A stretch of DNA of 40,610 nt from an uncultured Candidatus Saccharibacteria bacterium (GCA_964491455.1 CAZBFM010000001.1:522293-562902); one strand, 5' to 3'; shown: positions 950-25,053, numbered from the stretch's first letter. The notes: a model not told the origin generated them from the sequence alone. Made by a program: numbers and translations.

Positions 950-1036
950 GGGAAGGTGGCTGAGTGGTTGAAAGCAGCGGTTTACTAAACCGCCGGACCT
1001 TTACGGGTCTCGTGGGTTCGAATCCCACCCTTCCCG
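950..1036 (+). tRNA. tRNA-Ser (type II, long variable arm); anticodon reads ACU in my hand fold (GCU expected)
   Basis: Acceptor GGGAAGG/CCTTCCC, 3-bp D stem GCT/AGC, anticodon stem GCGGT/ACCGC with loop TTACTAA, 18-nt variable arm, T arm GTGGG-TTCGAAT-CCCAC, discriminator G. CCA is not encoded. Confidence 0.85.
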
Positions 1037-1048
1037 CATTGCAAAAAG

Positions 1049-1071
1049 AACTGCCGTTTGGCAGTTTTTTT
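1049..1071. terminator. Rho-independent terminator, bidirectional (A-run upstream, T-run downstream)
   Basis: AACTGCC-GTTT-GGCAGTT hairpin followed by TTTTTTT, preceded by AAAAAG. Confidence 0.7.
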
Positions 1072-1080
1072 GTAGCTAAA

Positions 1081-1208
1081 GAAGCAAGGTGGGATTCGAA
1101 CGGCCGCAGCGTTGCGATAGCAAGCAGCTGACGCCGCGAGGCCTGGTCCCGAAGCGAGTATTCGCGACGGCGAATACTCGACCGAGGGCGAGACCACCCT
1201 TCCCGCCA
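1081..1208 (-). other. Degenerate inverted tRNA-Ser-like element / structured RNA candidate
   Basis: Exact 14-nt inverted copy of the tRNA-Ser T-arm GTTCGAATCCCACC (1088-1101). Exact 13-nt direct copy of its acceptor end CCACCCTTCCCGC (1194-1206, followed by CA). Internal perfect 10-bp hairpin GAGTATTCGC-GACG-GCGAATACTC. The T stem and acceptor do not pair as in a functional tRNA. Confidence 0.3.
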
Positions 1209-1236
1209 TTACAAATGCAGACGCCGGTGATATACT
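1209..1236 (+). promoter_or_regulatory. Sigma70-like promoter candidate for 1264-1692
   Basis: TTACAA, 16-nt spacer, TATACT. Confidence 0.4.
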
Positions 1237-1263
1237 GAACGTGCGTATAAATTAATTATTCTT

Positions 1264-1692
1264 ATGAAGCAACTCGAAAAAGTATTATCGTCATTTTTCG
1301 CATCTCTCCCGAATCTCCCCGCGAGCATCCGAGAATTCCTCGTTAAAATCGCACCGTACTTTGCAGTGATTGGTTTTATTCTGTCGCTCCCTGCAATTCT
1401 CTCATTGATAGGGCTGGGATCCTTCGCGTCAGTTATCGCAGGTATTGGAGGCAACTGGGCAAACGACGGCGGCACCGCACTTGCCATCATCTACTCTATC
1501 GTCAGCACTATTCTTCTCGGTCTCTCAATTAGTGGACTCTTTGCGCGGCACATGGAGGGATGGCGTTACAGCTACTACAACGCGCTCGCTGGTGGCGTCT
1601 ATGCAATCTTGCGCTACGACTTGGGAGGTTTGATTATCGGCACCGGCATTTCATTGTACGTGCTTTTCCAGATTCGCTCGCACTACAAATAG
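1264..1692 (+). CDS. Small multi-pass membrane protein, function unknown
   Basis: 142-aa ORF with an ATG start and 3-4 hydrophobic helices. No motif recognised. Confidence 0.6.
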   Translation: MKQLEKVLSSFFASLPNLPASIREFLVKIAPYFAVIGFILSLPAILSLIGLGSFASVIAGIGGNWANDGGTALAIIYSIVSTILLGLSISGLFARHMEGWRYSYYNALAGGVYAILRYDLGGLIIGTGISLYVLFQIRSHYK

Positions 1693-1753
1693 CCACGCAC
1701 AGCGTGGCTCGACGTTGCGAAATCACGATTTTCGTGGTATTCTTTGACGTCCT

Positions 1754-3289
1754 ATGAGCTCCACGCCCTCTCCTATCGCATCGACCACATCCACCCCTCG
1801 CCCACCAGTCGTGGTTGTATTGGGTCACGTGGATCATGGAAAGACCAAGCTTCTCGACGTGATTCGTAAGACCAACGTCGTCGCCGGCGAGTCAGGCGGC
1901 ATCACGCAACACATCGGTGCCTATCAGGTTACGGCCGAGGGAAAGACGCTTACGTTCTTGGACACGCCAGGGCATGAAGCATTTACCGCGATCCGCAGTC
2001 GCGGAGCACATGTAGCAGATATTGCGATCTTGGTGGTCGCCGCCGACGAGTCCGTCAAGCCACAGACCAAGGAAGCTATCCGCATCATCAAAGAATCTGG
2101 TCTTCCTACTATTATCGCCATCAATAAGATCGACAAAGAGGGAGCAAACTCCGCAAAGGTAAAGCAGGATCTCGCACAAGAAGATGTGCTCGTCGAAGAA
2201 TGGGGCGGACAGACGCCTGCAGTTGAAATTTCGGCAAAAGATGGCCGTGGCATTCCTGAGCTCTTAGAAATGATTGGCTTGGTAGCCGACTTGCTTGAGC
2301 TCAAAGAAATCTTGCCCGCACAATCTTCAGGTATCATCATCGAGTCAAATCTTGATAAGCGTCGCGGCTATGTTGCCACTGCACTAGTCAAAGAAGGTAT
2401 TTTGCACGTTGGTGACTGGATAGTCGTTGACCACGTCGTCGGCAAAGTAAAAAGCATGGAAGATTTTCTGGGAACTCCAATCCAAGAAGCTCGCCCCTCG
2501 CAACCAGTACTGCTGACCGGATGGCAAGAACCTCCACGCGTTGGGGGCACGTATCACACAGCGCCATCGAAAAAGTCTGCCGAAGAACTCGCTGCCGACT
2601 CTATCACTCCCCCACCAGCTGCATTCGATACATTCCGCGGAGGCGACCATGGCACATCATCGGATCGGCTTACCTTGAATGTCATTTTCAAAGCGGATGT
2701 CGCTAGCTCGCTTGAAGCGATCGAACTTTCTATCGCAGCAATTCCTTCGGAGCAAATCTCTCTTCGTGTGCTCGGCTCTGGCATCGGCAACATCACCGAG
2801 GGTGATGTGAAAACAGCTGCAGCAAAAGGTGCAATAATTTTGGGATTTCGTGTGCAGCCAGATTCAGCTGCAGCAAAACTCGCTGAACGCGACGGCATCA
2901 CGATTCGTTCGTTTGATATCATCTACGAACTCATCGAGGCTATCCGCAACGAACTAGCCGCGCTTCTACCCACCGAGACACAGCGCACCGTGGTCGGCAA
3001 ACTCAAAGTGCTTGCCATCTTTAAAACTGATGCGCGCTCTGTTATCTTAGGCGGGCGCGTCACCACTGGATCGATTCGCAAGGGATCACTCGTGGATCTA
3101 GCGCAGTCCGAAAAGCCGATTCGTATCGGAAAAATCACGAGTCTCCAGCGCGAAAAAGAAGACGTCACCGAAGTCGCGCAAGGCGCTGACTGTGGTATGC
3201 GAATCGACACGAATGCATTCGAAGGTGAGGTTCGCGAGGGCGATGTGCTAGAATTCATCACCGAAGAGCAGGTTAAAAAAACGCTCTAA
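1754..3289 (+). CDS. infB: Translation initiation factor IF-2 (short form lacking the long N-terminal region)
   Basis: GTPase motifs VLGHVDHGKTKLLD, LDTPGHEAF and AINKIDK. C-terminal IF-2 domains are present. 511 aa. Confidence 0.95.
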   Translation: MSSTPSPIASTTSTPRPPVVVVLGHVDHGKTKLLDVIRKTNVVAGESGGITQHIGAYQVTAEGKTLTFLDTPGHEAFTAIRSRGAHVADIAILVVAADESVKPQTKEAIRIIKESGLPTIIAINKIDKEGANSAKVKQDLAQEDVLVEEWGGQTPAVEISAKDGRGIPELLEMIGLVADLLELKEILPAQSSGIIIESNLDKRRGYVATALVKEGILHVGDWIVVDHVVGKVKSMEDFLGTPIQEARPSQPVLLTGWQEPPRVGGTYHTAPSKKSAEELAADSITPPPAAFDTFRGGDHGTSSDRLTLNVIFKADVASSLEAIELSIAAIPSEQISLRVLGSGIGNITEGDVKTAAAKGAIILGFRVQPDSAAAKLAERDGITIRSFDIIYELIEAIRNELAALLPTETQRTVVGKLKVLAIFKTDARSVILGGRVTTGSIRKGSLVDLAQSEKPIRIGKITSLQREKEDVTEVAQGADCGMRIDTNAFEGEVREGDVLEFITEEQVKKTL

Positions 3290-3393
3290 CCGGCGCAGCA
3301 CCGCTTCGCCTGCTAGCTCCGTGGTACAAGCAGTGGTGCTAGATAGTAAAGGTGTATATGAACAATTCGAGGTATAGGTCATGCCGCATGCAT

Positions 3394-3468
3394 GGCGCAG
3401 TCGCCAAGTGGTAAGGCAAGGGTCTGCAAAACCCTTATTCGGGGGTTCGATTCCCCCCTGCGCCTCCA
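3394..3468 (+). tRNA. tRNA-Cys (GCA), CCA encoded
   Basis: Acceptor GGCGCAG/CTGCGCC, D arm with the A13:A22 mismatch typical of bacterial tRNA-Cys, anticodon loop CTGCAAA, T arm GGGGG-TTCGATT-CCCCC, discriminator T then CCA. Confidence 0.9.
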
Positions 3469-3493
3469 ATGTTCTTTTCGAGATAGGAGCGAT

Positions 3494-3985
3494 ATGCGTA
3501 TCATACGATGCACATCCACAAGTGTGTTCCCCTACACCGACCGACTCACGTATCTATTGCGACAACAGTCACCAGGCGATCGAGCACTGACCGATGATGA
3601 CATCAGAGAAGCGCTCAGTAATCCGAACTTCTACCTCTTCGTTGCCGTTGATGATCTGGGGTCGTTTCCCCATAATTACCTCGGTATGGGTAGCATTTTC
3701 TTCCAGCGCAATCTTGCGCGTTGGATTGCTGAAATTCACGATGTTGTTGTCGATGAGCCGCAACGTGGCCGACACATAGGTGAGACTCTGACAAAGAAAC
3801 TCATCGATACGGCGCAGTCATTCGCAACGAACCGAGATCAAAAGATAAAGTTGTTTCTGACGAGTCGACCCAGTCGCACGGCGGCCAATGCCCTCTATCG
3901 CAAGCTCGGCTTCGTGCTCGTCGCACAGGCAGATGGTGCATGGGGTACGAATTTGTACAAGATGAATATCATGCCAAGGCCCTGA
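3494..3985 (+). CDS. GNAT family N-acetyltransferase
   Basis: ATG at 3494 preceded by AGGAG (3485-3489). Acetyl-CoA motif A is VVVDEPQRGRHIGETL. The longer ORF from 3392 would overlap tRNA-Cys. Confidence 0.75.
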   Translation: MRIIRCTSTSVFPYTDRLTYLLRQQSPGDRALTDDDIREALSNPNFYLFVAVDDLGSFPHNYLGMGSIFFQRNLARWIAEIHDVVVDEPQRGRHIGETLTKKLIDTAQSFATNRDQKIKLFLTSRPSRTAANALYRKLGFVLVAQADGAWGTNLYKMNIMPRP

Positions 3986-4017
3986 CCCGCACGCCCGTTA
4001 CCTGATGGGCTTTTTTC

Positions 4018-4045
4018 TTGAAAAAGCCTTAAAAATCAGTATACT
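4018..4045 (+). promoter_or_regulatory. Sigma70-like promoter candidate for tRNA-Leu
   Basis: TTGAAA, 16-nt spacer, TATACT, about 17 nt upstream of the tRNA 5' end. Confidence 0.45.
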
Positions 4046-4061
4046 AGCGGTAGTACAGTTT

Positions 4062-4146
4062 GCCCGGGTGGCGGAATTGGTATACGCACTCGACTTAAAA
4101 TCGGGCGCCGCAAGGCATGTGGGTTCGACTCCCACCCCGGGCACCA
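4062..4146 (+). tRNA. tRNA-Leu (TAA), CCA encoded
   Basis: Acceptor GCCCGGG/CCCGGGC, anticodon stem CTCGA/TCGGG with loop CTTAAAA, long variable arm, T arm GTGGG-TTCGACT-CCCAC, discriminator A then CCA. Confidence 0.9.
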
Positions 4147-4164
4147 TCACATCTCAGTCAAAAC

Positions 4165-4186
4165 AGCACCCCGACATCGGGGTGCT
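4165..4186. terminator. Hairpin terminator shared by tRNA-Leu (+) and the 4194-4628 gene (-)
   Basis: AGCACCCCG-ACAT-CGGGGTGCT, followed by TTGCTT on the + strand and GTTTTG on the - strand. Confidence 0.55.
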
Positions 4187-4193
4187 TTGCTTC

Positions 4194-4628
4194 TCATTCG
4201 TATTCACGCATACCACGGGCATCGTAGAGACGGCTGCGCGTTTGCCCCACCGATAATGCACGAATTCGCGAGTAGCTTTCCACCGGCTGAAGAATCAATC
4301 CTCGCGTTGGCTTGGATGTGATGCGTATCTGCCACACCGGCATGCCGTGCATCAGGAAGTATCGCGCCTCCCCCGCAACGCCCGCACCCCACATGCCGTC
4401 GCCAAACGGAAGAAACACACCTCCATCGCACAGCGGGAGCACGCACTCATAGAAGTACACCATGCCATTGCCTGTACGCGACTTCGAGCGCCGATATCCT
4501 TCTTGATGCGCCACGATATTGGGGTTCTCAAGTGTGCAGTTCGGAATAAGTCGTGGGATACGCTCTAGGATGTACGCTTCCAGCTCCGTGTCGTATGAAT
4601 TTACGGGATGTCCAAAGTACAACCGCAT
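4194..4628 (-). CDS. Hypothetical protein; possibly nucleoside 2-deoxyribosyltransferase-like fold (weak guess)
   Basis: 144-aa ORF starting MRLYFGHPVNSYDTELE..., with ...GGVFLPFGDGMWGAGVAGEARYFLMHGMPVW. It lies between tRNA-Leu and tRNA-Arg on the opposite strand. Confidence 0.5.
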   Translation of the reverse strand: MRLYFGHPVNSYDTELEAYILERIPRLIPNCTLENPNIVAHQEGYRRSKSRTGNGMVYFYECVLPLCDGGVFLPFGDGMWGAGVAGEARYFLMHGMPVWQIRITSKPTRGLILQPVESYSRIRALSVGQTRSRLYDARGMREYE

Positions 4629-4708
4629 ACCTCACCTCCTCTGTCGCGACAATAGCAATCACGTTGAAATTGTAAAGAATCATGCGATACTCACAGTGAC
4701 TTCACCTT

Positions 4709-4780
4709 GCTCCTGTCGTTTAATGGATAAGACGCTGGCCTCCGAAGCCGGAAATTGAGGTTCGATTCCTCATGGGAGCA
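4709..4780 (+). tRNA. tRNA-Arg (CCG), CCA not encoded
   Basis: Acceptor GCTCCTG/TGGGAGC (two G:U pairs), D stem GTTT/AGAC, anticodon stem CTGGC/GCCGG with loop CTCCGAA, T arm TGAGG-TTCGATT-CCTCA, discriminator A. Confidence 0.85.
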
Positions 4781-4781
4781 C

Positions 4782-5672: not shown

Positions 5673-6152
5673 CTATTTATTGGCAACTACGAGCGCGATG
5701 ATCGTTTTGCCAGATTCCGTTGCAATGGTCACCGTTGCAATTCTTCCACTTTTTTCTGCGCTCAATACTGATGTGCCATTAACCGTTGCGTCTGCCTGTA
5801 TCTTCCAGCCCTGCTTCGCGATTTCTCCCTTGTACCACTTCGCAACATCGTCAACGCTGTCCGCTGTTTGCAATCCAACATAGTGACCCTCAGAGCTTGT
5901 ATCCTGTCCTGCTGCAAGAGAACCCTGCACCGTTGAGCCCGGATACACAGGTACATCGGCCGGGAAATCGTTCGGCAGTTTGTCACTCGTTGACCACGTT
6001 CCCTGGTCTGTTGTTACCGTGACGTCATCAATGCTTTTCTCTTCAGTCTCCTTCGTATCTAGAGTCGTGGACGATTTCATGAGACCAGCACGAGCGCCAA
6101 CAACTATCAATCCAACAAGAACGATCGCTCCGACAAGGTATTTTTTATTCAT
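5673..6152 (-). CDS. Exported or membrane-anchored hypothetical protein
   Basis: N-terminal signal anchor MNKKYLVGAIVLVGLIVVGARAG followed by a 130-aa soluble domain. No motif recognised. Confidence 0.65.
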   Translation of the reverse strand: MNKKYLVGAIVLVGLIVVGARAGLMKSSTTLDTKETEEKSIDDVTVTTDQGTWSTSDKLPNDFPADVPVYPGSTVQGSLAAGQDTSSEGHYVGLQTADSVDDVAKWYKGEIAKQGWKIQADATVNGTSVLSAEKSGRIATVTIATESGKTIIALVVANK

Positions 6153-6219
6153 AGGTGACGTACAATATATACGGTGCTATCGTAGCACTAGTTTATCTAT
6201 TTCGGGAGGTACCTTACCA

Positions 6220-7077
6220 ATGCTCGCAATGCTCCTGACGGTACAAATTCTGACGCAAGAAATACCGATCATATACTCGGCGAACATCCCCGATCCATCG
6301 AAGCGAGCAGTTGCGCAAGGGCAAGCCATCGCGCTGCAACTTACGCCACTCAAGTGTGCTCATCCCATTGTCTTCAACGATGTCGCGTACCGCTGTCGAC
6401 CCGATGGTTTCGTTATCATCGGGATTCCTATGAACACGCAAGCGCGAATCTATCCCGTAACATCGGGCACGTCCGTTGTGGCGCAACTCGATATCACCCC
6501 AACGGCATGGCAACGCATTCATCGATCAGCTCGACCGAGCGCGGGAAAAGCGCCACCGGCACAGCTTGATCGAGATCGTATCGCAAAAGACACAGCATTC
6601 TCGGCACACGCGGATGCACGTTGGAGCTCGTATCATCTGCGCGTACCGCTTGCACTTCCATTGAGTTCCGCATTTCGAATCACGGATCCCTTTGGCCTTC
6701 AGCGACTCTATGGGAAGCAAATGGCAACGATCGGACACAATGGAGTGGATCTCGCCGCTCCTGTCCAGCAATCGTGGAGTCGCAGCGCTCCGCTTGCGCA
6801 AAGCATGGCATCCGGCGTTGTTGTACTGGCGTCACGCCTCTGGGCGGAAGGCAATACGGTGGTCGTCTATCATGGCGATTCAATCTATACCTCATATTGT
6901 CATCTCCGCATCATCACTGTGAAGCGCGGCGAGCTCGTAAGCTCCGGACAAGCGCTTGGAGAAGTCGGTAGCACGGGACAATCTTCAGGCCCCCATTTGC
7001 ACCTCACATTTCGCATCAACGGCATCAATGTTGATCCCCTTCTCGCGCGTATCTCCCTCAATGAGTCACTCCGCTAA
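6220..7077 (+). CDS. M23 family metallopeptidase
   Basis: ATG at 6220 with GGGAGG at 6205-6210. Motifs HNGVDLAAP and GSTGQSSGPHLHLTFRINGINVDPL. The track start at 5980 overlaps the convergent 5673-6152 gene. Confidence 0.8.
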   Translation: MLAMLLTVQILTQEIPIIYSANIPDPSKRAVAQGQAIALQLTPLKCAHPIVFNDVAYRCRPDGFVIIGIPMNTQARIYPVTSGTSVVAQLDITPTAWQRIHRSARPSAGKAPPAQLDRDRIAKDTAFSAHADARWSSYHLRVPLALPLSSAFRITDPFGLQRLYGKQMATIGHNGVDLAAPVQQSWSRSAPLAQSMASGVVVLASRLWAEGNTVVVYHGDSIYTSYCHLRIITVKRGELVSSGQALGEVGSTGQSSGPHLHLTFRINGINVDPLLARISLNESLR

Positions 7078-7082
7078 ACACA

Positions 7083-7108
7083 ACCTGCACATCACTGTGC
7101 AGGTTTTT
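7083..7108 (+). terminator. Rho-independent terminator after the M23 gene
   Basis: ACCTGCAC-ATCACT-GTGCAGGT followed by TTTTT. Confidence 0.7.
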
Positions 7109-7139
7109 CATGATAAAATTTCATCACTACATACGTATT

Positions 7140-8621
7140 ATGCACCCCGAAAAAAAGAGCTTCATCATCCTATTCTTTCTTCTAGCGATCATATCAGGTG
7201 GATTATTAGCATGGCGCTTAGGGTTTAATCCTACGGTAGGAACATTCTTCGCATCAAACACCACAACACAAGAGCTGAAATTCCAAACAACATCAGCGAC
7301 GAGAATCAATGAAGTGGGCCGCGCAGGTACCTATGACTACTCACCTTCTAGTATTCGTGATGCTTCTGGGATGAAGGTCTACGTATGCGGTGGTGGAGTT
7401 GCGGGCGACCCGATGTCGGGCCATGACGCCATTTATTTGACGCAATTTGCTCCCGACGGGACAAAAGTCATCGATTCGCAACGCGTTATAGCACCCACTA
7501 TTACCACCGACTCCGACGACTCTATGCACGCATGTGCTCCGAGCGTGATTCAGCACAGTTTTTCACTATTGGAAAATGGCGCAAATAAATATCTCGCCTA
7601 CTACGAATGCGCACCAAAAGTGTACCGCACCAGCGACCAGGCCCACGTAGACATGTTCACTCAGATTTGTGTTGCCTACAGCGATGACGGCATCACCTGG
7701 AAAAAATATAACAAAACCGCATGGGAAGCAGCTGGAACACTTGTATCCTCAACGGAACCGGCCACTCCTGTCATTACAATCAATCCAATAATGGCTAGTC
7801 TTTTCGGAATCCGCGTCTCTGGTGGAAAATACTTAACTGACAAAACTGCAATCGAAGGTGCGCAATCCTATGGCGTCGGTCATCCCAGCGCACTTGTTCG
7901 TGATGGCATGATTTGGCTTTACTACTATGACTCGGTAGGAATGTGGGGTGATCGTGGTTTGTTTTTAAGAAAATCAAACGACGGCGTTCATTTCACTGAC
8001 GCCGTTAAGATTACGAACATCAAATCTCCTGTTGAAGTAAAGTACGTTCAAAACCCGGTCGGAACTCAGCCTGGATATTTTGTAGCGCTCGGACATGCAT
8101 TTAACGTTCCCTACTATAATTATTCATGGGATGGCATTAACTGGCAGTGGACCGAAGAAGACTCTCAAGATTTCTATACATCGATGCTCGCGCAAAATTA
8201 CTCCCTTGCCGCGCCGGCATCAGGAATGTGCCTTTCGCCTGGCGGGTTAAGTTTGGTGAGTGATTCATCGGGAACAGTCCAGAACACAACCATCGTTGTT
8301 GCTACCAACGAAGGCAAACTTGGCGGCAGCGACGGGTGCACCGCAAGCAATGGTTGCTCATGTTACGACCCCCGCGAAGATGCGGCTCGTGGGTCAACAT
8401 GGCAAGCATCATTTTATACTGGAACGTTTGCCGCTATCGTGCCGATATCAACTCCCCTTCGCGGCGACCTCAACTCCGACGGCATCGTCAACGCCGCAGA
8501 CCTCTCTAGGCTCGTTACGATATTTGGACAGACGAGCGATCTCGGTGGCGCTGATCTGATACCAGGCAACGGGGTGGATATCTTCGACTATAACGAGCTC
8601 GTGAGGATATTGAATCAGTAG
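7140..8621 (+). CDS. TM-anchored Asp-box (BNR) beta-propeller protein, putative glycosidase-like, with C-terminal dockerin
   Basis: Start chosen at MHPEKKSF by parallel with the next gene. TM helix plus WRLGFNPTVGTFFASN motif. Asp-box-like repeats YSDDGITW, KSNDGVHF, YSWDGINW. Dockerin is GDLNSDGIVNAADLSRLV...ADLIPGNGVDIFDYNELV (8457-8621). Confidence 0.7.
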   Translation: MHPEKKSFIILFFLLAIISGGLLAWRLGFNPTVGTFFASNTTTQELKFQTTSATRINEVGRAGTYDYSPSSIRDASGMKVYVCGGGVAGDPMSGHDAIYLTQFAPDGTKVIDSQRVIAPTITTDSDDSMHACAPSVIQHSFSLLENGANKYLAYYECAPKVYRTSDQAHVDMFTQICVAYSDDGITWKKYNKTAWEAAGTLVSSTEPATPVITINPIMASLFGIRVSGGKYLTDKTAIEGAQSYGVGHPSALVRDGMIWLYYYDSVGMWGDRGLFLRKSNDGVHFTDAVKITNIKSPVEVKYVQNPVGTQPGYFVALGHAFNVPYYNYSWDGINWQWTEEDSQDFYTSMLAQNYSLAAPASGMCLSPGGLSLVSDSSGTVQNTTIVVATNEGKLGGSDGCTASNGCSCYDPREDAARGSTWQASFYTGTFAAIVPISTPLRGDLNSDGIVNAADLSRLVTIFGQTSDLGGADLIPGNGVDIFDYNELVRILNQ

Positions 8622-8630
8622 TATACTCAA
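8456..8630 (+). repeat. Copy 1 of a ~175-bp near-identical direct repeat (dockerin coding segment plus stop plus 9 nt)
   Basis: Matches 10310-10484 with 3 mismatches by eye. The remainder of the two genes is dissimilar at the DNA level. Confidence 0.9.
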
Positions 8631-8645
8631 GAAGAATTTCTTTGT

Positions 8646-10475
8646 ATGCATCCAAGTAAGCGAGCATTCATTCTCCTCGTTGTTATACTAGCTCTCATTT
8701 CTGGTGGTCTTTTGATGTGGCGGTTTGGGGTAACGTTTGATGCGGGAAGGTTCTTTGCAGCCGAGAACAGCGATGGGGTCGATCCTCAATATATTTTTGT
8801 TCGAAAAAGCAATACTTGCTCTAATTGCATTCTGTGGAATGGGCACTATCCGGAAAACTACAGCGCCGCAGCTATCAACGAAATCGTTACTCTTATTGGC
8901 ACAAAGGGAACACCCACGCGTCGACTCGGCGTCGGGGCTATCTTCGAACCAAATCAAATCGACATAGCAAAGACAAAGCAGTCTCTCGTCAATCTACTCC
9001 TTGCCTCATTAGAAAATGAATTCCCAGTCTTTATCTCCCTTGATAACTTTACCTGGTGGGATAACCGCCCAAACCTCTGGTATTGGTGGGAACCGGGTAT
9101 AAGTGCCGCCGAGAAAGCAGCACGCAAAGCGAATGTCGAGTGGTCCAACTGGGATGGAGATACGAACGACGCTAACGCACTTAAAATCAGCTGGACGAAT
9201 TGGGGTAGCCAGTTCCGCAGACCTCCGAGCCCTAATCTTTTGAGTCCCGCGTATATCGAGAATTCGATTTCTAACCTCAATCAACTATTACCGGTAATCA
9301 CCGAGTGGTATCGTCAGTTACCAGCAAATAAGAAATATTTACTCGGAGGCGTTGATTTTGGTAATGAGGTTGATATTGGTGCTAATTTTTATTACTACCC
9401 AAATGGCAATTCGTATACCAGCGGAGACCCAGTATCAACATTGAACACGGATCCTGCGAGTGACCCACACTATCCCACGAGCGACTTCTTGGCGCACACG
9501 ACTCAAATAGGCTACGCCGCATTGAAGCTCGGCGGTATCAAGTCGTCGGGAGCGATAACTACCGAAGACCTCAATGCCGCAGTTAATCGTTACCTAAATA
9601 TACTCACGAAGCACGCCTATGACGCAGGCATCCCGCGTAATAAGATATTCAATCACACCGGTGGCAAGGGGTCATCACCCGACTGGATATACCCATCAAC
9701 ACCTGCGTTCACCGATCTGCGCAGCACCCTCATGCCATATGCGTACCCCGGATGGAGCCTGTACGGCAATAAAACGAATCCTGTAAATAGCGTATTACTA
9801 AACAGCGCCCTCGATAGCGTGCCGGGCATGCAGTGGGCATCACCGGAATGGCTTCCCGACGCAACGGACGCTGCCGAATGGCTTTCCGCAGTCAGAAATA
9901 CATTAAACTATCGCAATAATCGATTCATTAATATCGCAAATTGGGAAGAAATCAGAAACAATCCTAATGCGTTATCGGCAATTCGTACCGCACTCGGAGA
10001 AAGCCCCGCATGCTGGGTAAGCAGCCCCACCGTCAGCGTAGCAGCGACGGGAAATTCCGCCGTTTTCACCGTGAGTGGCGGACAACATGCGACCGCTCAA
10101 TATCTGAATATTGCCACCAATTCGACCTTGAGAAGTGATGGCATTTTCCAAACAGCGGATATCGCCAATGACAATATCGTCGGCAAGAACAGCTACACCG
10201 TGCCGAATTTGACACCAGGTGTATATCATTGGCTTCTTGCGTCCGATGGGTGCAGCCCCGTGCAACGTCGTGTCGCGTATGGAACATTCGAAATTACCGC
10301 TTCGCAAGCCCTTCGCGGCGATCTCAACTCCGACGGCATCGTCAACGCCGCAGACCTTTCTAGGCTCGTTACGATATTTGGACAGACGAGCGATCTCGGT
10401 GGCGCTGATCTGATACCAGGCAACGGGGTGGATATCTTCGACTATAACGAGCTCGTGAGGATCTTGAATCAGTAG
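8646..10475 (+). CDS. TM-anchored protein of unknown (possibly carbohydrate-active) function with Ig-like module and C-terminal dockerin
   Basis: N-terminus MHPSKRAFILLVVILALISGGLLMWRFGVTFDAGRFFAAEN, Trp-rich central domain, dockerin identical to that of 7140-8621 (10311-10475). Confidence 0.7.
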   Translation: MHPSKRAFILLVVILALISGGLLMWRFGVTFDAGRFFAAENSDGVDPQYIFVRKSNTCSNCILWNGHYPENYSAAAINEIVTLIGTKGTPTRRLGVGAIFEPNQIDIAKTKQSLVNLLLASLENEFPVFISLDNFTWWDNRPNLWYWWEPGISAAEKAARKANVEWSNWDGDTNDANALKISWTNWGSQFRRPPSPNLLSPAYIENSISNLNQLLPVITEWYRQLPANKKYLLGGVDFGNEVDIGANFYYYPNGNSYTSGDPVSTLNTDPASDPHYPTSDFLAHTTQIGYAALKLGGIKSSGAITTEDLNAAVNRYLNILTKHAYDAGIPRNKIFNHTGGKGSSPDWIYPSTPAFTDLRSTLMPYAYPGWSLYGNKTNPVNSVLLNSALDSVPGMQWASPEWLPDATDAAEWLSAVRNTLNYRNNRFINIANWEEIRNNPNALSAIRTALGESPACWVSSPTVSVAATGNSAVFTVSGGQHATAQYLNIATNSTLRSDGIFQTADIANDNIVGKNSYTVPNLTPGVYHWLLASDGCSPVQRRVAYGTFEITASQALRGDLNSDGIVNAADLSRLVTIFGQTSDLGGADLIPGNGVDIFDYNELVRILNQ

Positions 10476-10484
10476 TATACTCAA
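10310..10484 (+). repeat. Copy 2 of the ~175-bp dockerin repeat
   Basis: See 8456-8630. Confidence 0.9.
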
Positions 10485-10490
10485 ATCACT

Positions 10491-11483
10491 ATGGAACCAA
10501 CACCTCAACCATCACCCTCTCACGCATCGCGCTGGTTCGTGCTCATTGGAGCTCTCATACTCATTGTGGGAGCAGCGTATGGCTCGTACTGGTATTTTAT
10601 TGAGAAGCAAAATCTTAGCTTCAATATCGATCTCAACACAAGCTCGGCATCAACAGACTCCCCCGTGCTCAACCTCACCCCCGGAGCAACGTCAATCACC
10701 ACAGGCCAACCAGGCTACTTTGATATCACCATTGATGCTGGTACCAGAAAAGTTTCCGCTGTCGATCTACGTCTCGCAATCACCGGAGCTGTCACGGGAT
10801 TAGCGATCGACACATCGACATCCGAGTTCACTGATCTCATTAAAGCTGCCAGTATTACGGGTCAAACCGCGACCATCGTTCTCGGTTCTGGCGCCACTCC
10901 TAAATCAGGAGTCAACCTCAAGGTTGCTCGTCTCACATTCACAGCGGGTGCGGTTGGCACAATCTCACTCTCAACAAGCGGATCCCAAGCGGCGTCAAAC
11001 GAGTCAACTACGAATATTCTCGCATCCTCCACCACTAGTACAATTTCAGTGGTTGCTATAGCGCTCAATCCACCTACAGCGACCCTTACTGCATCCCCCA
11101 CAACCATAAAGACTGGGCTGCTATTGAATTCTTCTGCAACGCTTACGTGGTCACATAATGGTACCAGTGCAACCATCTCACCAGCAGGAGTTGCGACATC
11201 CGTTGGCGCCACCGGCAGCACTACCGTGAGTCCCACCACAACCACCACGTACACGCTCACAGCAACAAATACTGATGGCTCAACTCCAACAACAGCAACA
11301 ATTACGGTCCAGAAAGTATGCGATGTTAATAACGATGGAGTCGTCGGCATCCTGGACATCAATCCTATCGTGGAGGACTTTGGGAAGCCCAGCGCACGAG
11401 CTGACTTCAATAAAACCGGCCTCGTAGACATTTTCGATTACAATATTTTTGTCACCAATTTTGCGAGTCAAAAAACAAACTAA
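10491..11483 (+). CDS. Adaptor-type protein: TM anchor, cohesin-like module, Ig-like module, C-terminal dockerin
   Basis: Cohesin-like segment YFDITIDAGTRKVSAVDLRLAI...VNLKVARLTFTAGAVGTISLS (about 10653-11001). Dockerin is CDVNNDGVVGILDINPIV...ADFNKTGLVDIFDYNIFV (11319-11483). Confidence 0.65.
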   Translation: MEPTPQPSPSHASRWFVLIGALILIVGAAYGSYWYFIEKQNLSFNIDLNTSSASTDSPVLNLTPGATSITTGQPGYFDITIDAGTRKVSAVDLRLAITGAVTGLAIDTSTSEFTDLIKAASITGQTATIVLGSGATPKSGVNLKVARLTFTAGAVGTISLSTSGSQAASNESTTNILASSTTSTISVVAIALNPPTATLTASPTTIKTGLLLNSSATLTWSHNGTSATISPAGVATSVGATGSTTVSPTTTTTYTLTATNTDGSTPTTATITVQKVCDVNNDGVVGILDINPIVEDFGKPSARADFNKTGLVDIFDYNIFVTNFASQKTN

Positions 11484-11489
11484 CATCGT

Positions 11490-12365
11490 ATGACGTCATC
11501 CCTCCTTCGATCATCGGTAGCATTTGCAGTCATGATCCTTCTGCTGGCACCAACTACCGTATTCGCACTCGCAGGTGGACCCACGCTATCCTTGCAACCA
11601 AGCGCCTCTACCACCAGCACGAATAATCAATTCACCGTTCAACTTTCTCTCGATACAAAAAGCTATACCGTCACAGCGGTCGATGTGAAGATCTCCTTCC
11701 CTTCTGACAAGTTGCAGGCACTCTCTATTACTCCGGGAACATTTCTACCCTCAGAGCTCATACCCGGTTCGGTTGGCCCAGGAACCGCCGCTATCACCAT
11801 GGCGGGTGGAGCAACGGGAAAGCAAGGCACGGGCACAGTAGCAATAGTCACCTTCAAGGCACTCAGTGCCGGGTCTGCCACAATTACATTCGACGCGTCC
11901 ACTCAAATAGCCGCAGTAGGCCAGACAAGCAACGTTGTCGACACACTGTCGCCGACAACAGTCACCATCTCAGGTGCCACCGTCATTACGTCCACACCGA
12001 CAGCGACGATATCCGCGACACCCACGCCAACATCCGGATCATGCCCAACACAATATGACCCCGTCTGTGGAACGAACGGCGTGACCTACGTAAATCGCTG
12101 CTCGGCTGAAATCGTCTATCGCAAAACCGTCGCCTACGTTGGAGCATGCACCACCGCGTCTACAACACCCACCACGTCACCGCGCATACCATCAGTAGGC
12201 CAAATATCAACTGGCCCCGGCGATGTCACCATCGTGGCACTTATCCTAAGCTCGCTGACAACACTCTTGTATGTGGGCTACACGCGCTCAAACGCATTCC
12301 GAAAAAACGAAATTGAGGAGATCGCAAAAGACGAACGCGAAACCCCTCCTGATTTTCGATCGTAG
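11490..12365 (+). CDS. Anchoring scaffoldin-like protein: signal peptide, cohesin-like module, Kazal-like module, C-terminal TGPGD-TM-DFRS anchor
   Basis: Signal peptide MTSSLLRSSVAFAVMILLLAPTTVFALA. Cohesin-like FTVQLSLDTKSYTVTAVDVKISFPSDKLQAL...GTVAIVTFKALSAGSATITFD. Kazal signature CPTQYDPVCGTNGVTYVNRC...GAC (12042-12149). Anchor module at 12207-12365. Confidence 0.7.
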   Translation: MTSSLLRSSVAFAVMILLLAPTTVFALAGGPTLSLQPSASTTSTNNQFTVQLSLDTKSYTVTAVDVKISFPSDKLQALSITPGTFLPSELIPGSVGPGTAAITMAGGATGKQGTGTVAIVTFKALSAGSATITFDASTQIAAVGQTSNVVDTLSPTTVTISGATVITSTPTATISATPTPTSGSCPTQYDPVCGTNGVTYVNRCSAEIVYRKTVAYVGACTTASTTPTTSPRIPSVGQISTGPGDVTIVALILSSLTTLLYVGYTRSNAFRKNEIEEIAKDERETPPDFRS

Positions 12366-13412: not shown

Positions 13413-13844
13413 GTGACTATTCTTTCTACGACGTTGATCGCTCTGGCGCTGATCATCGCGAGCGTCGTTTCATACAGCTTCGTGGTCGGGCCCTGGATCT
13501 ACGCCAAGGAGCTCAAGGAGCTGTTTTCCTTGGACACTCTACCAAAGGACAAGCTCGAACGTGAGATGGCGACACCCTACCTCAAGGCGGCGCTCCAGAA
13601 GTACGAGTACGCCATGAAGGCGGTCCAACACGAGCTCCGGCTGCACCTCGGACTACCAGACGCATCAACGCCCGAAGAGGTGTCCGAGCGCATCGCACAG
13701 TATCGCGCGATCACGTCGCGGCTCCATGATGCCACGTGGAAACACGAGCGAGCACGCTTCATGTACAGCAAGTTCGGAGAAGAGCCCGAAACGCCCCTCA
13801 CACAGAGCCAAGGCGCTGTCTTCGATCCGAACGCCATCGACTAG
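13413..13844 (+). CDS. TM-anchored hypothetical protein (GC3-rich ORF)
   Basis: GTG start at 13413, 8 nt after AAGGAG. One N-terminal TM helix and a helical soluble part. About 62% GC in the sampled 60 nt. Confidence 0.55.
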   Translation: MTILSTTLIALALIIASVVSYSFVVGPWIYAKELKELFSLDTLPKDKLEREMATPYLKAALQKYEYAMKAVQHELRLHLGLPDASTPEEVSERIAQYRAITSRLHDATWKHERARFMYSKFGEEPETPLTQSQGAVFDPNAID

Positions 13845-14975: not shown

Positions 14976-16796
14976 TTACTTGCGGATACGAAAGACCAGT
15001 TCCTGACTATCAAGCCATACGTCCGCCGACCCCGCTGAATGATCATCCAAATACAAGCCAAAATTACCGCAACCAACACCGAAAAGTAGCGGAATATCTT
15101 CGACAAATATGGGATTCATTGCAATAAACATCCAGTCTCCGAGAGGTTGATCTGTGAGCATCAGCCTGAGATGCGGTCCGACTTCTGCGGGGCAAAGCTC
15201 GAGACCGAGCTGTTCGGCTGTTCTGCTGATTTGATCAAAAGTGACTCCACTCTGGAGACCGAGGTCAGCGACCGTCAAACGAACCAGATCAACACGCTCT
15301 CTTGTCTTGGATGTTGTAAAGTCGGGGCTATCCAGAAGTGAACGGGCATAGTTGTTGGTATAGATATTTTGCGATTGCATCTCCTGCTCGAGCTGTTCCG
15401 CACTCATCCCCCCAATCTCCGTCTCCATCTTTCTGATCTTCCCCTCAGGAAACGAGGTGTAGAGATGCTCGATGGGGAGACTAAAGATACCAGGGAAGAG
15501 CGGACCGATGTATGCCTTGGTGTCCGGCTTGATCTGCCTCTCTCTGGCGGCAAGCTGATGTGGTTTGCAGTCGAAGACAACGGACATGTCGGCAACAGGG
15601 CTGCGGGTTCTGCGGAGCTCTTCAATGCGGGGGTCTTTCTGATAGCCAAATCCTTCGATAGGGGTATCGAGCTCGTAGAGGAAGGTGAGGTCGTCTCGCG
15701 AGAGAACCTTGCCGGCGCCTGCTTTCTTCTCGATTTCAGTCAGATGCGCCATGTCTGCTGATTTTTTCTCATATGACGTGCCGTCAGGAAATTCCTTCAG
15801 CTTCTCCTGCACCACAGGCGCGATATACGGGTCGAGGTTTTGATCGGATGCGATACCACGTACCTCACCGATACTGTTTCCTTCCATGCGGATAGCGGAG
15901 CGAGGGATGGTTGGCTTGCCTGATGCGTCGAGCGAGTAGTAGACGTAGAAGTCGCCATGAGAAAGTTGGTTCTGTGCGGTAGACTCCCCTGCGGTGCACC
16001 AGCCCGTGCCGTGACCCTGTAGAGATTGTACGAGTGGCATATGGTCGGAGCCTCGCGGATATTTGACCCAGACCCCTTCGGTGACGGAGAGGAGATTTTT
16101 CTCCGTGGGAGTGACTTGCTCAATTGCCCAGGCATAGAGCTTTGGGAAATTTTCTGATTTAACCAGCTCCGCTGCTCCGCCCTCCATAAGCAAGTATCCC
16201 GCGTGCTTTTTCTCAATAATATCGAGCACATACGCCAGTGCTTCGCGATTCAGATCGGGAAATGGTTTCGTGGTGCCCTTGGAGCGCTTGGTGAATGCTT
16301 TCTTTTCTTTGTCATATTCGCCCATGCCCAAGATACTGCGGATAGCAAAGTACTTGAGCCAATCGGGATAGGTGGCATCGGGAGACGAGAGGTAGTCGAT
16401 CCAGGTATCCAGCGAACTGCGCTGATCGGATGTGATCACATCAGCGAGCTGTTCCCGTTGTTCTTCGGTAATTTCGATATCGCCATGTCCTCGCTCGCGC
16501 GCAAGCTTCTGTTGATGTTCGTAGTATCCCTCGGGGATATCTGCTGGTCGGATGACGTGCCTATCGTACATCACCTTTTTGAGTGCACTCATCCCCCGCT
16601 CTCGCAGTGCGGGGCTGGGACGATCGAGGATCTCGCGGATGCGCGCGAGATAGTTGGAGATTTGAGACTCGGGCTGTTGCGGTACTTTCTCGCCAGTGCG
16701 TATTCTAGTACGCTTTGCCGCTGCTTCCGTTTCGGGAGCTTTGTGCAGCGCATATTTTTCCTTGAGCATCTTCGGCCCGTGTTCGGACATATGCAA
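14976..16796 (-). CDS. Large (606 aa) cytoplasmic hypothetical protein, no recognisable domain
   Basis: Long uninterrupted ORF with an ATG start and no TM helix or signal peptide. Distinctive stretches are DWLKYFAIRSILGMGEYDKEKKAF and HGTGWCTAGESTAQNQLSHGDFYVYYS. Confidence 0.7.
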   Translation of the reverse strand: MHMSEHGPKMLKEKYALHKAPETEAAAKRTRIRTGEKVPQQPESQISNYLARIREILDRPSPALRERGMSALKKVMYDRHVIRPADIPEGYYEHQQKLARERGHGDIEITEEQREQLADVITSDQRSSLDTWIDYLSSPDATYPDWLKYFAIRSILGMGEYDKEKKAFTKRSKGTTKPFPDLNREALAYVLDIIEKKHAGYLLMEGGAAELVKSENFPKLYAWAIEQVTPTEKNLLSVTEGVWVKYPRGSDHMPLVQSLQGHGTGWCTAGESTAQNQLSHGDFYVYYSLDASGKPTIPRSAIRMEGNSIGEVRGIASDQNLDPYIAPVVQEKLKEFPDGTSYEKKSADMAHLTEIEKKAGAGKVLSRDDLTFLYELDTPIEGFGYQKDPRIEELRRTRSPVADMSVVFDCKPHQLAARERQIKPDTKAYIGPLFPGIFSLPIEHLYTSFPEGKIRKMETEIGGMSAEQLEQEMQSQNIYTNNYARSLLDSPDFTTSKTRERVDLVRLTVADLGLQSGVTFDQISRTAEQLGLELCPAEVGPHLRLMLTDQPLGDWMFIAMNPIFVEDIPLLFGVGCGNFGLYLDDHSAGSADVWLDSQELVFRIRK

Positions 16797-20488: not shown

Positions 20489-21655
20489 ATGCCAGACCAA
20501 CCATCACTCACCCCGCAAGCACCCCAGTCGCGCCCACCGATGAATCTCCCGATAGCATCGAGTCGCGCCTCCTCACCTTCTACCCCCGTCGCAGCACCTA
20601 TACAGGCACCAAAACCGGCGCTGCAACCTCCTGCGCCTGCGATGACAGAGATTCGCGCACCTGTACCCACGCCAACTCCTCCACCCAGAATCGCATCTGA
20701 GTCACGCCCCATGCCGGTTGCGCCTACTCCACATACATCCGTGACTGAGCAAGTGCACACGATGAGCACCGATATTGCTCGCATTACCACTGGAACCTAT
20801 ACAGCGCCCACAGATCGTACCCCGCAAGCCCCACTTCCCGCGCGAATAACACCTCCGCCCCTGCAAGAACCTAGCACACCTCGAGGCCGTATGGCTGCAT
20901 ACGCGATTGGCGCCATTATTGTCATAGGCCTGATTGGTTACCTTATCTCATCAATACTCAGCAATTCAGATTCCATTGCGACGACGCCAACTCCTGTTAC
21001 CTCTCGAAGTGCCTCGCCATCACCTACAGCCACCCCCAGCAACGCTCGCAAGATTGCCTCCTATTTCGCTGATACAACTACGCTTGCCGCGTTACCGCAA
21101 TCATCCTCAATCGTTACGGATGCGCGAAATACAATCATTGCCACAAAAACACAGCCAAAAACAGCTCAGCGCCTTCTAATAACAATCGCAGGAGCAACGC
21201 CCACTTCATCCGTCGTCGTGCGCTCATTGCTAACACCTTCACTTCCAGAGACCACACTAGCATCGTTTCTAGGCGCTGATTGGGCTACCGTGACCTATGG
21301 TCAAACCGAGCAATATACGAGCGCGGGCGCGCTTACGACCGGGATAGCGACGAGACCCGTTATGATTATTGAGGTAACCGATGCGACGATTGCACGCCAG
21401 CAAATGCTCAACTGGGAGACAAGCGGCCTTCTTGATGCTGCGAGTCAGCTCTTTGGCTTTGATGCTACGAAGCGCAAGCTCGATACGTTTAGCGATGCGC
21501 TCCATCGAACACTACCCGTTCGCTTTATCAATTTCCCGTATGCTGACTCGAGCATAGACTACGTAATCGTCACTGCCTCCAACAACGTAAACTATCTCGT
21601 CATCGCGTCGTCCCGCGAGTCACTATTTTACGTAGTCGATCTGCTCACACAGTAG
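20489..21655 (+). CDS. Hypothetical protein: Pro-rich N-terminal region, single TM helix, extracytoplasmic domain
   Basis: ATG at 20489. About 135 aa of P/A/T-rich sequence, TM helix AAYAIGAIIVIGLIGYLISSIL, then a 230-aa domain with no motif recognised. Confidence 0.6.
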   Translation: MPDQPSLTPQAPQSRPPMNLPIASSRASSPSTPVAAPIQAPKPALQPPAPAMTEIRAPVPTPTPPPRIASESRPMPVAPTPHTSVTEQVHTMSTDIARITTGTYTAPTDRTPQAPLPARITPPPLQEPSTPRGRMAAYAIGAIIVIGLIGYLISSILSNSDSIATTPTPVTSRSASPSPTATPSNARKIASYFADTTTLAALPQSSSIVTDARNTIIATKTQPKTAQRLLITIAGATPTSSVVVRSLLTPSLPETTLASFLGADWATVTYGQTEQYTSAGALTTGIATRPVMIIEVTDATIARQQMLNWETSGLLDAASQLFGFDATKRKLDTFSDALHRTLPVRFINFPYADSSIDYVIVTASNNVNYLVIASSRESLFYVVDLLTQ

Positions 21656-24090: not shown

Positions 24091-25053
24091 CTACTTAGCA
24101 AGTGGATTCTTTGCGCCGTGAACCTCAAAATGCAAATGGTTTCCCGTGGAGTTCCCTGTCGAACCCATGAGTGCAATTACATCGCCCCTGTGAACGCTTT
24201 GCCCAACTTCAACAAGAAGCTTTGAGGCATGTCCGTACAGCGTTTCGGTCCCGTTGCCGTGCGACAGCTTAATGTACCGTCCATAGCCGCCATTGTAGCC
24301 GCTCGCATCTGAAATCACGACAACACCATCAGCGGCAGCTTTGATTGGCGTTCCGTAGCTATTTGCAATATCTATGCCGTTTCGTCCGTGAATCGCACCG
24401 TTTCGCGTAATGATTCCCGTCGTTGGCCTCATAAAGTAATCCCCGAGATCAGGAAGGTGCGTAAACTGCGTAACCACAGTCGTTGCAAGCTTTGTCGCAG
24501 CTCCCGCTGTTCGACTCACCCTCAATACACCGTTTGGAATGATGATTTCACTACTTATCGCCAGGCTACCATCAATGGGTAGGCGATTATAAGCAATGAT
24601 CCTGTCGACGTCGGCACCATACTTGTTCGCTAAGGAACTCGCAGTATCTCCTTTTAGGACCTTGTGAATTACACCGGTAATTGGCGGTATTCTCAATATC
24701 TGACCAGGCTTGATATTATTCGGATTTGTTAATGAGTTTGCCCACATAATAGAGGTCTGCGAGACGCCATAGTCAGACGCAATAAATGAAAGCAGATCGC
24801 CATCTTGCACGACGTATTCGATAACGCCGGCACGACGGCCAGATAGCTGCTCAATATATTCACTATCCGGAGGAGTTATCGCTAGCAGCGCACTATCATG
24901 CATCGTAGCGACTTCGGTACTCGGAATAGGGGATAGAGCGGATGAATCTCCCATGGAACCCGCATAGACGCTATTGATATCTGCGAGTTGAGCGTATGAA
25001 AGCTGCTGCCCGCTCACACGGACTGGCGTTCGATCCTCAATCGATTTCTGCAT
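24091..25053 (-). CDS. LysM-domain M23 peptidase (murein hydrolase); the true 5' end is probably upstream, up to 25251
   Basis: Two LysM repeats (YVVQDGDLLSFIASDYGVSQTSIMWANSL, HKVLKGDTASSLANKYGADVDRIIAYNRL). M23 motifs HGRNGIDIAN and GSTGNSTGNHLHFEVHG. The upstream frame is open and encodes a TM helix. Confidence 0.85.
   Translation of the reverse strand: MQKSIEDRTPVRVSGQQLSYAQLADINSVYAGSMGDSSALSPIPSTEVATMHDSALLAITPPDSEYIEQLSGRRAGVIEYVVQDGDLLSFIASDYGVSQTSIMWANSLTNPNNIKPGQILRIPPITGVIHKVLKGDTASSLANKYGADVDRIIAYNRLPIDGSLAISSEIIIPNGVLRVSRTAGAATKLATTVVTQFTHLPDLGDYFMRPTTGIITRNGAIHGRNGIDIANSYGTPIKAAADGVVVISDASGYNGGYGRYIKLSHGNGTETLYGHASKLLVEVGQSVHRGDVIALMGSTGNSTGNHLHFEVHGAKNPLAK

Follow-up and report, generated by a model that had tools for sequence, protein, structure and literature searches.

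The g1 to g4 operon described here lies in a 40,610-nt stretch of DNA from an uncultured Candidatus Saccharibacteria bacterium (GCA_964491455.1 CAZBFM010000001.1:522293-562902; hereafter the window) and probably gives rise to a cohesin-dockerin complex, small and non-cellulosomal, on the surface of this member of the Patescibacteria, the candidate phyla radiation (CPR). The four genes code for two cargo proteins (g1 and g2), an adaptor (g3) and an anchoring scaffoldin (g4). All four are open reading frames (ORFs) on the plus strand, as a first-pass annotation made from the DNA alone had described, with gaps of 24, 15 and 6 nt between successive genes. In the assembly we propose, g4 would be secreted and held by its C-terminal membrane helix, with its cohesin pointing away from the membrane. 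The g3 dockerin would bind that cohesin, and the dockerin shared by g1 and g2 would bind the g3 cohesin. A multi-cohesin scaffoldin is not encoded, g3 and g4 having one cohesin each, so a chain would consist of the anchor, the adaptor and a single enzyme, with g1 and g2 as competitors for one docking site. Such single-enzyme chains suggest a device that tethers or extends enzymes rather than one that builds a multi-enzyme cellulosome.

A dockerin was recognized by a tandem pair of repeats, each about 22 residues long and containing a 12-residue calcium loop of the form D-x-N/D-x-D/N-G-x-I/V-x-x-x-D followed by a helix. This two-repeat architecture is found in g1, g2 and g3, with the helices at residues 568-576 and 597-605 in the g2 model. 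A six-frame regular-expression scan of the 40.6-kb window placed dockerin-type calcium loops in these three genes only, each time at the C-terminus. Both loops of the g3 dockerin are canonical (DVNNDGVVGILD and DFNKTGLVDIFD), as is the first loop of the dockerin common to g1 and g2 (DLNSDGIVNAAD). Adaptor dockerins, which end in VDIFDYNIFVTNYASQKT, form a conserved type of their own. The curated cut-off of the Pfam model Dockerin_1 (PF00404) is 22.9 bits, and cassette-equivalent or orthologous proteins from other genomes pass it with 36.9, 33.6, 25.1, 24.8 and 23.9 bits. The model also matched 11 of 31 g2 homologues, 7 of 32 g1 homologues and five of seven adaptors (best 4.1e-7). A profile of 13 cassette dockerins ranked solved dockerins first (2y3n_B at 1.6e-10, 2b59_B at 1.2e-6 and 2jnk at 1.5e-6), with calmodulins next at about 1e-5, as expected for a module related to EF-hands. 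The g1 dockerin matched 2y3n_B at 1.3e-4, and the adaptor profile found 2y3n_B and 2jnk at about 1e-3. We therefore base the dockerin call in the window on the orthologues above the cut-off, the homologue matches and the profile matches, and not on the Pfam scores of the window proteins themselves.

The g4 protein encodes a cohesin recognized by Pfam (PF00963; residues 40-159, 28.6 bits against a cut-off of 24.1), and a profile of the g4 family with 23 members matched the solved cohesins 3l8q (3e-9), 6kg8 (1.5e-6) and 1qzn (4.6e-6). Residues 54-208 of g3 are homologous to this family (BLASTP 1e-6; hhalign 98.8%, E 5.5e-17, 153 columns). Given this homology and the silence of the Pfam Cohesin model, the g3 module appears to be a divergent paralogue of the g4 cohesin. 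The middle region of g3 is matched by many otherwise unrelated I-set and PKD proteins. The first-pass annotation had placed dockerin strings in g1 and g2, a different dockerin at the end of g3, cohesin-like modules in g3 and g4, and a signal peptide, a Kazal module and a TGPGD membrane anchor in g4. All of these were recovered, directly or by way of family profiles, the dockerin strings at the C-termini and the TGPGD motif together with a hydrophobic helix. Of the model searches it had proposed, those for Cohesin and Kazal placed g4 above the cut-offs, and that for Dockerin_1 succeeded with the orthologues but not with the window proteins.

By sequence comparison, distant Patescibacteria have kept the cassette, with cargo that varies between genomes. 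The same four genes are found in a Candidatus Paceibacterota metagenome-assembled genome (L008), where the g4 homologue is 93% identical. Other loci encode one cargo protein with the adaptor and anchor (L001), two cargo genes with the adaptor (L006), or the adaptor and a cupredoxin-bearing anchor followed by a dockerin-lectin gene (L007). In L004 and L017, cargo, adaptor and anchor are encoded together at a different genomic place; Dockerin_1 matches there (33.6, 36.9 and 23.9 bits) and the Cohesin match of the L017 anchor (27.6 bits) are all over the cut-offs, and the second cargo of L017 is a sulfatase-dockerin. In six of the nine GTDB reference-genome loci found via the anchor cohesin, ORFs with dockerin loops also precede the cohesin gene by no more than a few kb. 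Two cargo proteins in relatives have the dockerin at the N-terminus, right after a hydrophobic helix: a BNR protein (L006 4342-6168), whose dockerin resembles the adaptor type, and an F5/8-type-C lectin protein (L007 3498-4310).

The g2, g3 and g4 domains of the window and L008, its closest public relative, are mostly 95-100% identical. In g1, the leader is 90% and the dockerin 96% identical, and the catalytic domain between them (7266-8444 versus L008 3522-5132) is 77% identical. It looks as though the g1 catalytic module was replaced by recombination between conserved ends. The g2-like catalytic domain in L017 is 72% identical to that of g2, and the dockerin attached to it is 33% identical and of the local type. 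Catalytic domains, as far as these alignments indicate, move without their dockerins. Within the window, g1 and g2 are unrelated apart from the dockerin and the leader, and a 176-nt direct repeat spans the 54-residue cargo dockerin of each and runs on for 9 nt after the stop. The near identity of the two repeats, together with a T-to-S substitution present in both cargo dockerin copies of L008, suggests that the dockerin tag has undergone gene conversion or evolved in concert. Regardless of the enzyme, the cargo dockerins of one locus are almost the same, while those of different genomes differ, and each genome has one dockerin type shared by all cargo and one adaptor-specific type. Two dockerin types and two cohesin paralogues are kept in every cassette seen, over a range of 21%-98% identity. 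The homogenised cargo dockerins, the separate adaptor type and the dockerin-independent movement of domains match the patterns of cellulosome-producing species.

Sequence searches were uninformative for the cargo domains of both g1 and g2, and their identity is taken from structure prediction. An exhaustive search of 1.84 billion representative proteins returned only 131 relatives of g1. No Pfam family covers its catalytic part, and the only match from phmmer and profile searches of PDB, Pfam and NCBIfam was to a glycoside hydrolase (GH), at 0.15. The AlphaFold2 model of g1 is a beta-propeller most like the five-bladed glycosidases (GH117, GH62 and GH130), with GH117 (4e-10), GH62, GH130 phosphorylases, GH32 and GH43 as its best Foldseek matches. 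Invariant residues in the family include D96, E156 and four cysteines, and its members carry Malectin, CBM6 or Ig-like modules as fusions. Asp-box repeats typical of sialidases had been read in g1 by the first-pass annotation. That reading did not hold: the repeats are a 7-residue S-x-D-G-x-x-[W/F] variant, Pfam BNR had no match at E <= 1, and a six-bladed sialidase was rejected as the fold, 48 propeller-enzyme matches ranking above the sialidase 2sil (rank 49, Foldseek).

Relatives of g2 number 40. Most are from Patescibacteria; the others include one protein from Omnitrophica and one eukaryotic transcript. Neither a Pfam family nor a PDB sequence covers its catalytic part, which drew a blank in phmmer and profile searches of PDB, Pfam and NCBIfam, and the exact g2 sequence was not found in the contig collection. 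What had been described as a Trp-rich domain of unknown function is still without a Pfam family but is now predicted to be a glycosidase-like TIM barrel. Foldseek matched the g2 model to GH14 beta-amylase (1.7e-7), GH26 mannanase, GH158 laminarinase, Cwp19 and GH42. E165, E241 and E401 are invariant across 31 homologues. In the model, E241 is 4 residues after the strand at 233-237 and E401 is within the strand at 397-403. By our strand count these are barrel strands 4 and 7, suggestive of the layout of many retaining glycosidases. Membership in clan GH-A is less clear: GH26, GH158 and GH42 are among the matches, but the best match, GH14, is outside the clan, and the Asn usually preceding the acid/base Glu in clan GH-A is not conserved in the g2 homologues.

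Both cargo proteins begin with a leader of the form MHPxKKxFxxLxxxLAxISGGLLxWRFG...G(R/K)FFA(A/S), common to cargo with unrelated catalytic domains in the window, L001, L004, L006 and L017. Leader identity stays at about 50% even where the adaptors and anchors of two genomes share 21-33%, and several other proteins in the 1.84-billion library (P0248, P0258, P0264, P0288 and P0301) match it and no other part of the cargo. It is conserved beyond what would be expected of a generic signal peptide.

Between its cohesin and its membrane helix, g4 encodes a Kazal module (Kazal_1, PF00050, 34.3 bits with a cut-off of 21; Kazal_2, PF07648, 33.1 bits with a cut-off of 22.8) that matched the solved Kazal inhibitor 1tgs_I at 3.9e-5. 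The module has four cysteines, C185, C193, C204 and C220, equivalent to Kazal C2, C3, C4 and C6; with four rather than six, it lacks the C1-C5 disulfide. The P1 position is occupied by Thr187 in g4 and by Ala in some orthologues. The module would probably shield the exposed complex from serine proteases. The window and its close relatives have a Kazal module at this place, P0006 (L007 2505-3491) has a cupredoxin (Copper-bind/Cupredoxin_1) and P0007-P0012 have no module there, suggesting the slot holds an exchangeable accessory. Conserved across the anchor family is the N-terminal stretch (...ALA/GGPTL), and the C-terminal tail of g4, about 26 residues, charged and ending PPDFRS, is conserved as well.

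The g4 terminus is not an LPXTG sortase-type wall anchor, as its motif reads (I/V)-x-TGPG(D/E) and its tail is long. In the family alignment, TGPG aligns with LPxTG-like motifs of more distant Patescibacteria cohesin proteins. No sortase gene was found within the 40.6-kb window, and NCBIfam models matched neither the TGPG(D/E) anchor nor the MHPxKK...GGLLxWRFG leader. The same C-terminal signal is found in three window proteins (12210-12365, plus strand; 37085-37234 and 38302-38457, minus strand): g4, a protein of 404 aa that matches no Pfam family and a DUF11 repeat protein of 671 aa. It consists of TGPG(D/E), a hydrophobic helix of about 20 residues (...LLYVGY/...LLYVSY) and a charged tail of about 25 residues ending DFR(S). 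This terminus may be a lineage-specific sorting signal or anchor not previously described.

The order of assembly from anchor to adaptor to cargo, already put forward in the first-pass annotation, fits the presence of one cargo-type and one adaptor-type dockerin per genome. It is supported indirectly, by the synteny of the cassette and the two dockerin types, and the binding steps are predicted. The cargo would be exchangeable, as relatives load other proteins: a sulfatase, a BNR protein whose dockerin is N-terminal, or an F5/8-type-C lectin module. A glycan would be the substrate, either from a host cell envelope or an environmental polysaccharide. Host envelope glycans are a reasonable guess given the conserved M23 peptidase gene next door, the relatives' sulfatase and lectin cargo and the attachment of cultivated Patescibacteria to hosts. 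We tentatively entertain a fuller version, which as a whole is rather unlikely: a swappable-cargo surface device of ultra-small, host-dependent Patescibacteria, three-tiered with one cohesin per tier, that displays two glycoside-hydrolase-like families with no Pfam family or solved structure matching by sequence (in relatives, a sulfatase and lectin modules), attacks or harvests host-envelope glycans and is exported and anchored via the MHPxKK...GGLLxWRFG leader and the TGPG(D/E) anchor.

Several observations weigh against the proposed complex. The window proteins fall under the Dockerin_1 cut-off (14.6 bits for g1, 15.4 for g2 and 12.5 for g3). The second loop of the g1 and g2 dockerin (DLIPGNGVDIFD) is degenerate, without the usual ligand residues at positions 3 and 5. 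Pfam Cohesin matched none of the seven adaptors, g3 included, and no cohesins were among the PDB matches of the adaptor profile. The Foldseek TM-scores for g1 and g2 are modest, about 0.4-0.55. Finally, g1, g2 and g3 each begin with a hydrophobic segment of about 19-23 residues with no clear signal-peptidase site. If these helices are retained, all subunits would be membrane-bound, the anchoring would be partly redundant and the interactions would cluster the proteins.

The hydrophobic helices on g1, g2 and g3 would also suit a different wiring of the same modules, in which both dockerins bind g4, the cargo docks directly on g4 and leaves the g3 cohesin for another partner, or membrane proteins of the same cell are clustered with no linear hierarchy. 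The second repeat of both dockerin types contains a VDIFDYN motif, consistent with such an arrangement, and the 608-aa cargo of L006 with its adaptor-like N-terminal dockerin suggests that some cargo may bypass the adaptor. We nevertheless consider other wirings improbable, as the constant retention of two dockerin types and two cohesin paralogues is most simply explained by two separate specificities.

It is also conceivable that no complex forms, the dockerins being calcium-binding, EF-hand-like stabilising tails and the cohesins beta-sandwich spacers of unrelated surface proteins encoded side by side by chance. Cohesin-like and dockerin-like modules with no demonstrated partner are widespread outside cellulosomes. 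The low Dockerin_1 scores in the window, the calmodulin matches of the dockerin profile and the failure of Pfam to see the g3 cohesin are all compatible with this reading. Yet dockerin and cohesin genes stay neighbours across distant genomes, the dockerins are homogenised within a genome whatever the enzyme attached, and a catalytic domain that passes from one lineage to another takes on a different dockerin. This is the pattern expected of a docking tag selected to fit a local receptor, and makes the absence of a complex very unlikely.

That the operon encodes a true minimal cellulosome degrading plant cellulose is hardly credible: "simple" cellulosomes have been annotated in CPR genomes (PMC6031116 and PMC9123182), and the structural neighbours of the g2 barrel include clan GH-A polysaccharidases, but Pfam found no cellulase, hemicellulase or cellulose-binding or other carbohydrate-binding module family in the window cargo or scaffoldins, each scaffoldin has a single cohesin, the cargo of relatives includes a sulfatase and lectin-type modules, and the conserved neighbours are M23 peptidoglycan peptidases. 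The label "cellulosome-style" given in the first-pass annotation overstates the case for the same reasons, the single cohesins and the lack of a cellulase or carbohydrate-binding module among the matches. The small surface complex of anchor, adaptor and exchangeable enzyme remains our preferred reading, and its features are listed in Table 1.

Table 1. Features of the g1 to g4 operon and its 5' boundary, with positions counted from the first nucleotide of the window.
Feature	Position	Strand	Remarks
Hairpin of 10 bp then U-run, 5' operon boundary	7082-7105	+	folding
g1, cargo 1	7140-8621	+	493 aa
g1 conserved N-terminal hydrophobic leader	7140-7265	+	
g1 beta-propeller glycosidase-like domain (predicted)	7266-8444	+	AlphaFold2 pLDDT 86.5
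g1 cargo dockerin	8457-8618	+	
Direct repeat of 176 nt	8455-8630 and 10309-10484	+	98% identical DNA
g2, cargo 2	8646-10475	+	609 aa
g2 conserved N-terminal hydrophobic leader	8646-8771	+	
g2 (beta/alpha)8-barrel glycosidase-like domain (predicted)	8778-10010	+	AlphaFold2 pLDDT 90.5
g2 beta-sandwich (predicted)	10011-10301	+	residues 462-550 in model
g2 cargo dockerin	10311-10472	+	amino-acid sequence same as in g1
g3, adaptor	10491-11483	+	330 aa
g3 transmembrane helix	10533-10601	+	hydrophobic residues 15-37
g3 divergent cohesin-like module	10653-11075	+	homology to g4
g3 Ig/PKD-like module	11076-11306	+	residues ~200-272
g3 adaptor-type dockerin	11316-11471	+	residues 276-327, two canonical Ca loops
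g4, anchoring scaffoldin	11490-12365	+	291 aa
g4 signal peptide	11490-11573	+	...VFALA/GGP, cleavable-looking
g4 cohesin	11574-11969	+	Pfam and family profile
g4 Kazal module, four-cysteine	12033-12152	+	preceded by Thr/Pro linker
g4 TGPGD motif	12210-12224	+	
g4 transmembrane helix	12225-12284	+	hydrophobic residues 246-265

The four genes look like a single transcription unit, as inferred from the short gaps between them, a hairpin upstream of g1 and a convergent tyrosine recombinase gene that ends 9 nt downstream of g4. The hairpin has a dG of -15.2 kcal/mol (z -4.6), none of 200 shuffled sequences folding equally well, and is probably the intrinsic terminator of the upstream M23 peptidase gene. 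It was overlooked in a terminator consensus scan and revealed by direct folding. An alternative ATG for g1 at 7110 was rejected, as it sits within the terminator U-tract; the start at 7140 agrees with the conserved MHPxKK leader, matched in g2 and the orthologues. No supported ORF was found on the opposite strand between g1 and g4. The starts of the four genes are all in one reading frame, and read-through translation of 8646-12365 gives g2, g3 and g4 separated by stops and 2-5 codons only. This shared frame is probably due to chance.

The adjoining recombinase gene raised a mobile-element origin for the operon, which we rejected. The recombinase gene is syntenic in relatives and housekeeping genes are encoded around it, consistent with a chromosomal locus. 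In the window the cassette lies between the M23 peptidase and recombinase genes. In L004 (6316-12878) and L017 (6136-14138), of a more distant lineage labelled Saccharibacteria, by contrast, the cassette and two small ORFs are found between the two genes that encode the N- and C-terminal halves of a split transketolase. Downstream, a 143-aa ORF (13413-13844) is unrelated to the 143-aa gene 3' of the L004 anchor. Two M23 peptidase genes are encoded in the window, at 5980-7077 on the plus strand and at 24091-25053 on the minus strand, the latter with LysM domains. The first, directly upstream of the operon, is again found beside the cassette in L001, L006 and L007, as is an AF_1845-like gene; L008 likewise has a gene that matches in size and position.

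Further from the operon, four tRNA genes, Ser-ACT (an ARAGORN call), Cys-GCA, Leu-TAA and Arg-CCG, are interspersed with genes for IF-2 and a GNAT acetyltransferase at 950-4781. A mechanically called ORF at 3392-3985 overlaps the tRNA-Cys gene, so its true start must be further downstream. Three other ORFs had no Pfam match at the thresholds used: 14976-16796 (minus strand, 606 aa), 33299-34849 (plus strand, 516 aa) and 20489-21655 (plus strand, 388 aa).

A large proportion of uncultured bacteria belong to the Patescibacteria, of which the few in culture are attached to the cells of a host. To our knowledge, little has been established about the way they hold on to these cells and draw food from them. 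The operon offers a small conserved system of four genes, with two predicted binding pairs and two enzyme families without a Pfam match. On the basis of their models, which are glycosidase-like but fit no known family, g1 and g2 are candidate founders of new glycoside hydrolase families. Single-cohesin tiers with membrane segments on every subunit would be an unusual cohesin-dockerin design.

Mechanistically, the anchoring and adaptor scaffoldins of Firmicutes cellulosomes are, by analogy, the closest counterparts, and the best PDB matches found here are solved modules from such systems, for example those of Acetivibrio cellulolyticus (ScaB/ScaC) and Bacteroides cellulosolvens. The likeness includes cohesin and dockerin modules, two specificities arranged as anchor, adaptor and enzyme, clustered genes, homogenisation of dockerins within a genome and Thr/Pro-rich linkers. 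Firmicutes scaffoldins, however, have several cohesins, and with one in each scaffoldin several enzymes cannot share a scaffold here. The single cohesins and the lack of a cellulase or carbohydrate-binding module also speak against a true cellulosome. No CBM3, cellulase, SLH or LPXTG anchor was found in the operon, and the present system further differs from those of Firmicutes in its TGPGD and transmembrane anchor, the Kazal module on that anchor, the N-terminal helices on the enzymes and adaptor and its occurrence in a Patescibacterium.

The closest functional analogue is the non-cellulosomal cohesin-dockerin pairing of Clostridium perfringens glycosidases. The cohesin-dockerin pairs of C. 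perfringens join glycoside hydrolases acting on host glycans, not on plant cell walls, and the solved dockerin 2jnk/2ozn of the NagH/NagJ glycosidase toxin complexes of that species is among the top matches here. As in the present operon, the C. perfringens modules are single rather than in arrays. They are on large secreted enzymes that bind one another, whereas the operon encodes a dedicated anchor and a dedicated adaptor, both with membrane segments.

Simple cellulosomes have been reported in the CPR before, in the same phylum-level group and likewise with few cohesin and dockerin genes. A "simple, two-subunit cellulosome" was described in the Saccharibacterium T. rhizospherense (PMC6031116), and cellulosome genes in Ca. 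Shapirobacterales and Roizmanbacterium (PMC9123182). A dockerin-domain protein is essential in Southlakia epibionticum, a cultivated and genetically tractable Saccharibacterium (PMC10633639), suggesting that dockerin-based surface assemblies may be central to this lifestyle. The excerpted text of these three reports gives brief annotation, and no description of a cassette in three parts, of the folds of its cargo, of a pair of dockerin types, of an inserted Kazal or cupredoxin module or of an anchor at the C-terminus was found in it. A search of the literature on cohesins and dockerins in Patescibacteria, the candidate phyla radiation, Saccharibacteria and Parcubacteria found no dissection of such a cassette. 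The idea of simple cellulosomes in the CPR is thus already published, and what appears to be new is the dissection of the cassette at the level of its modules.

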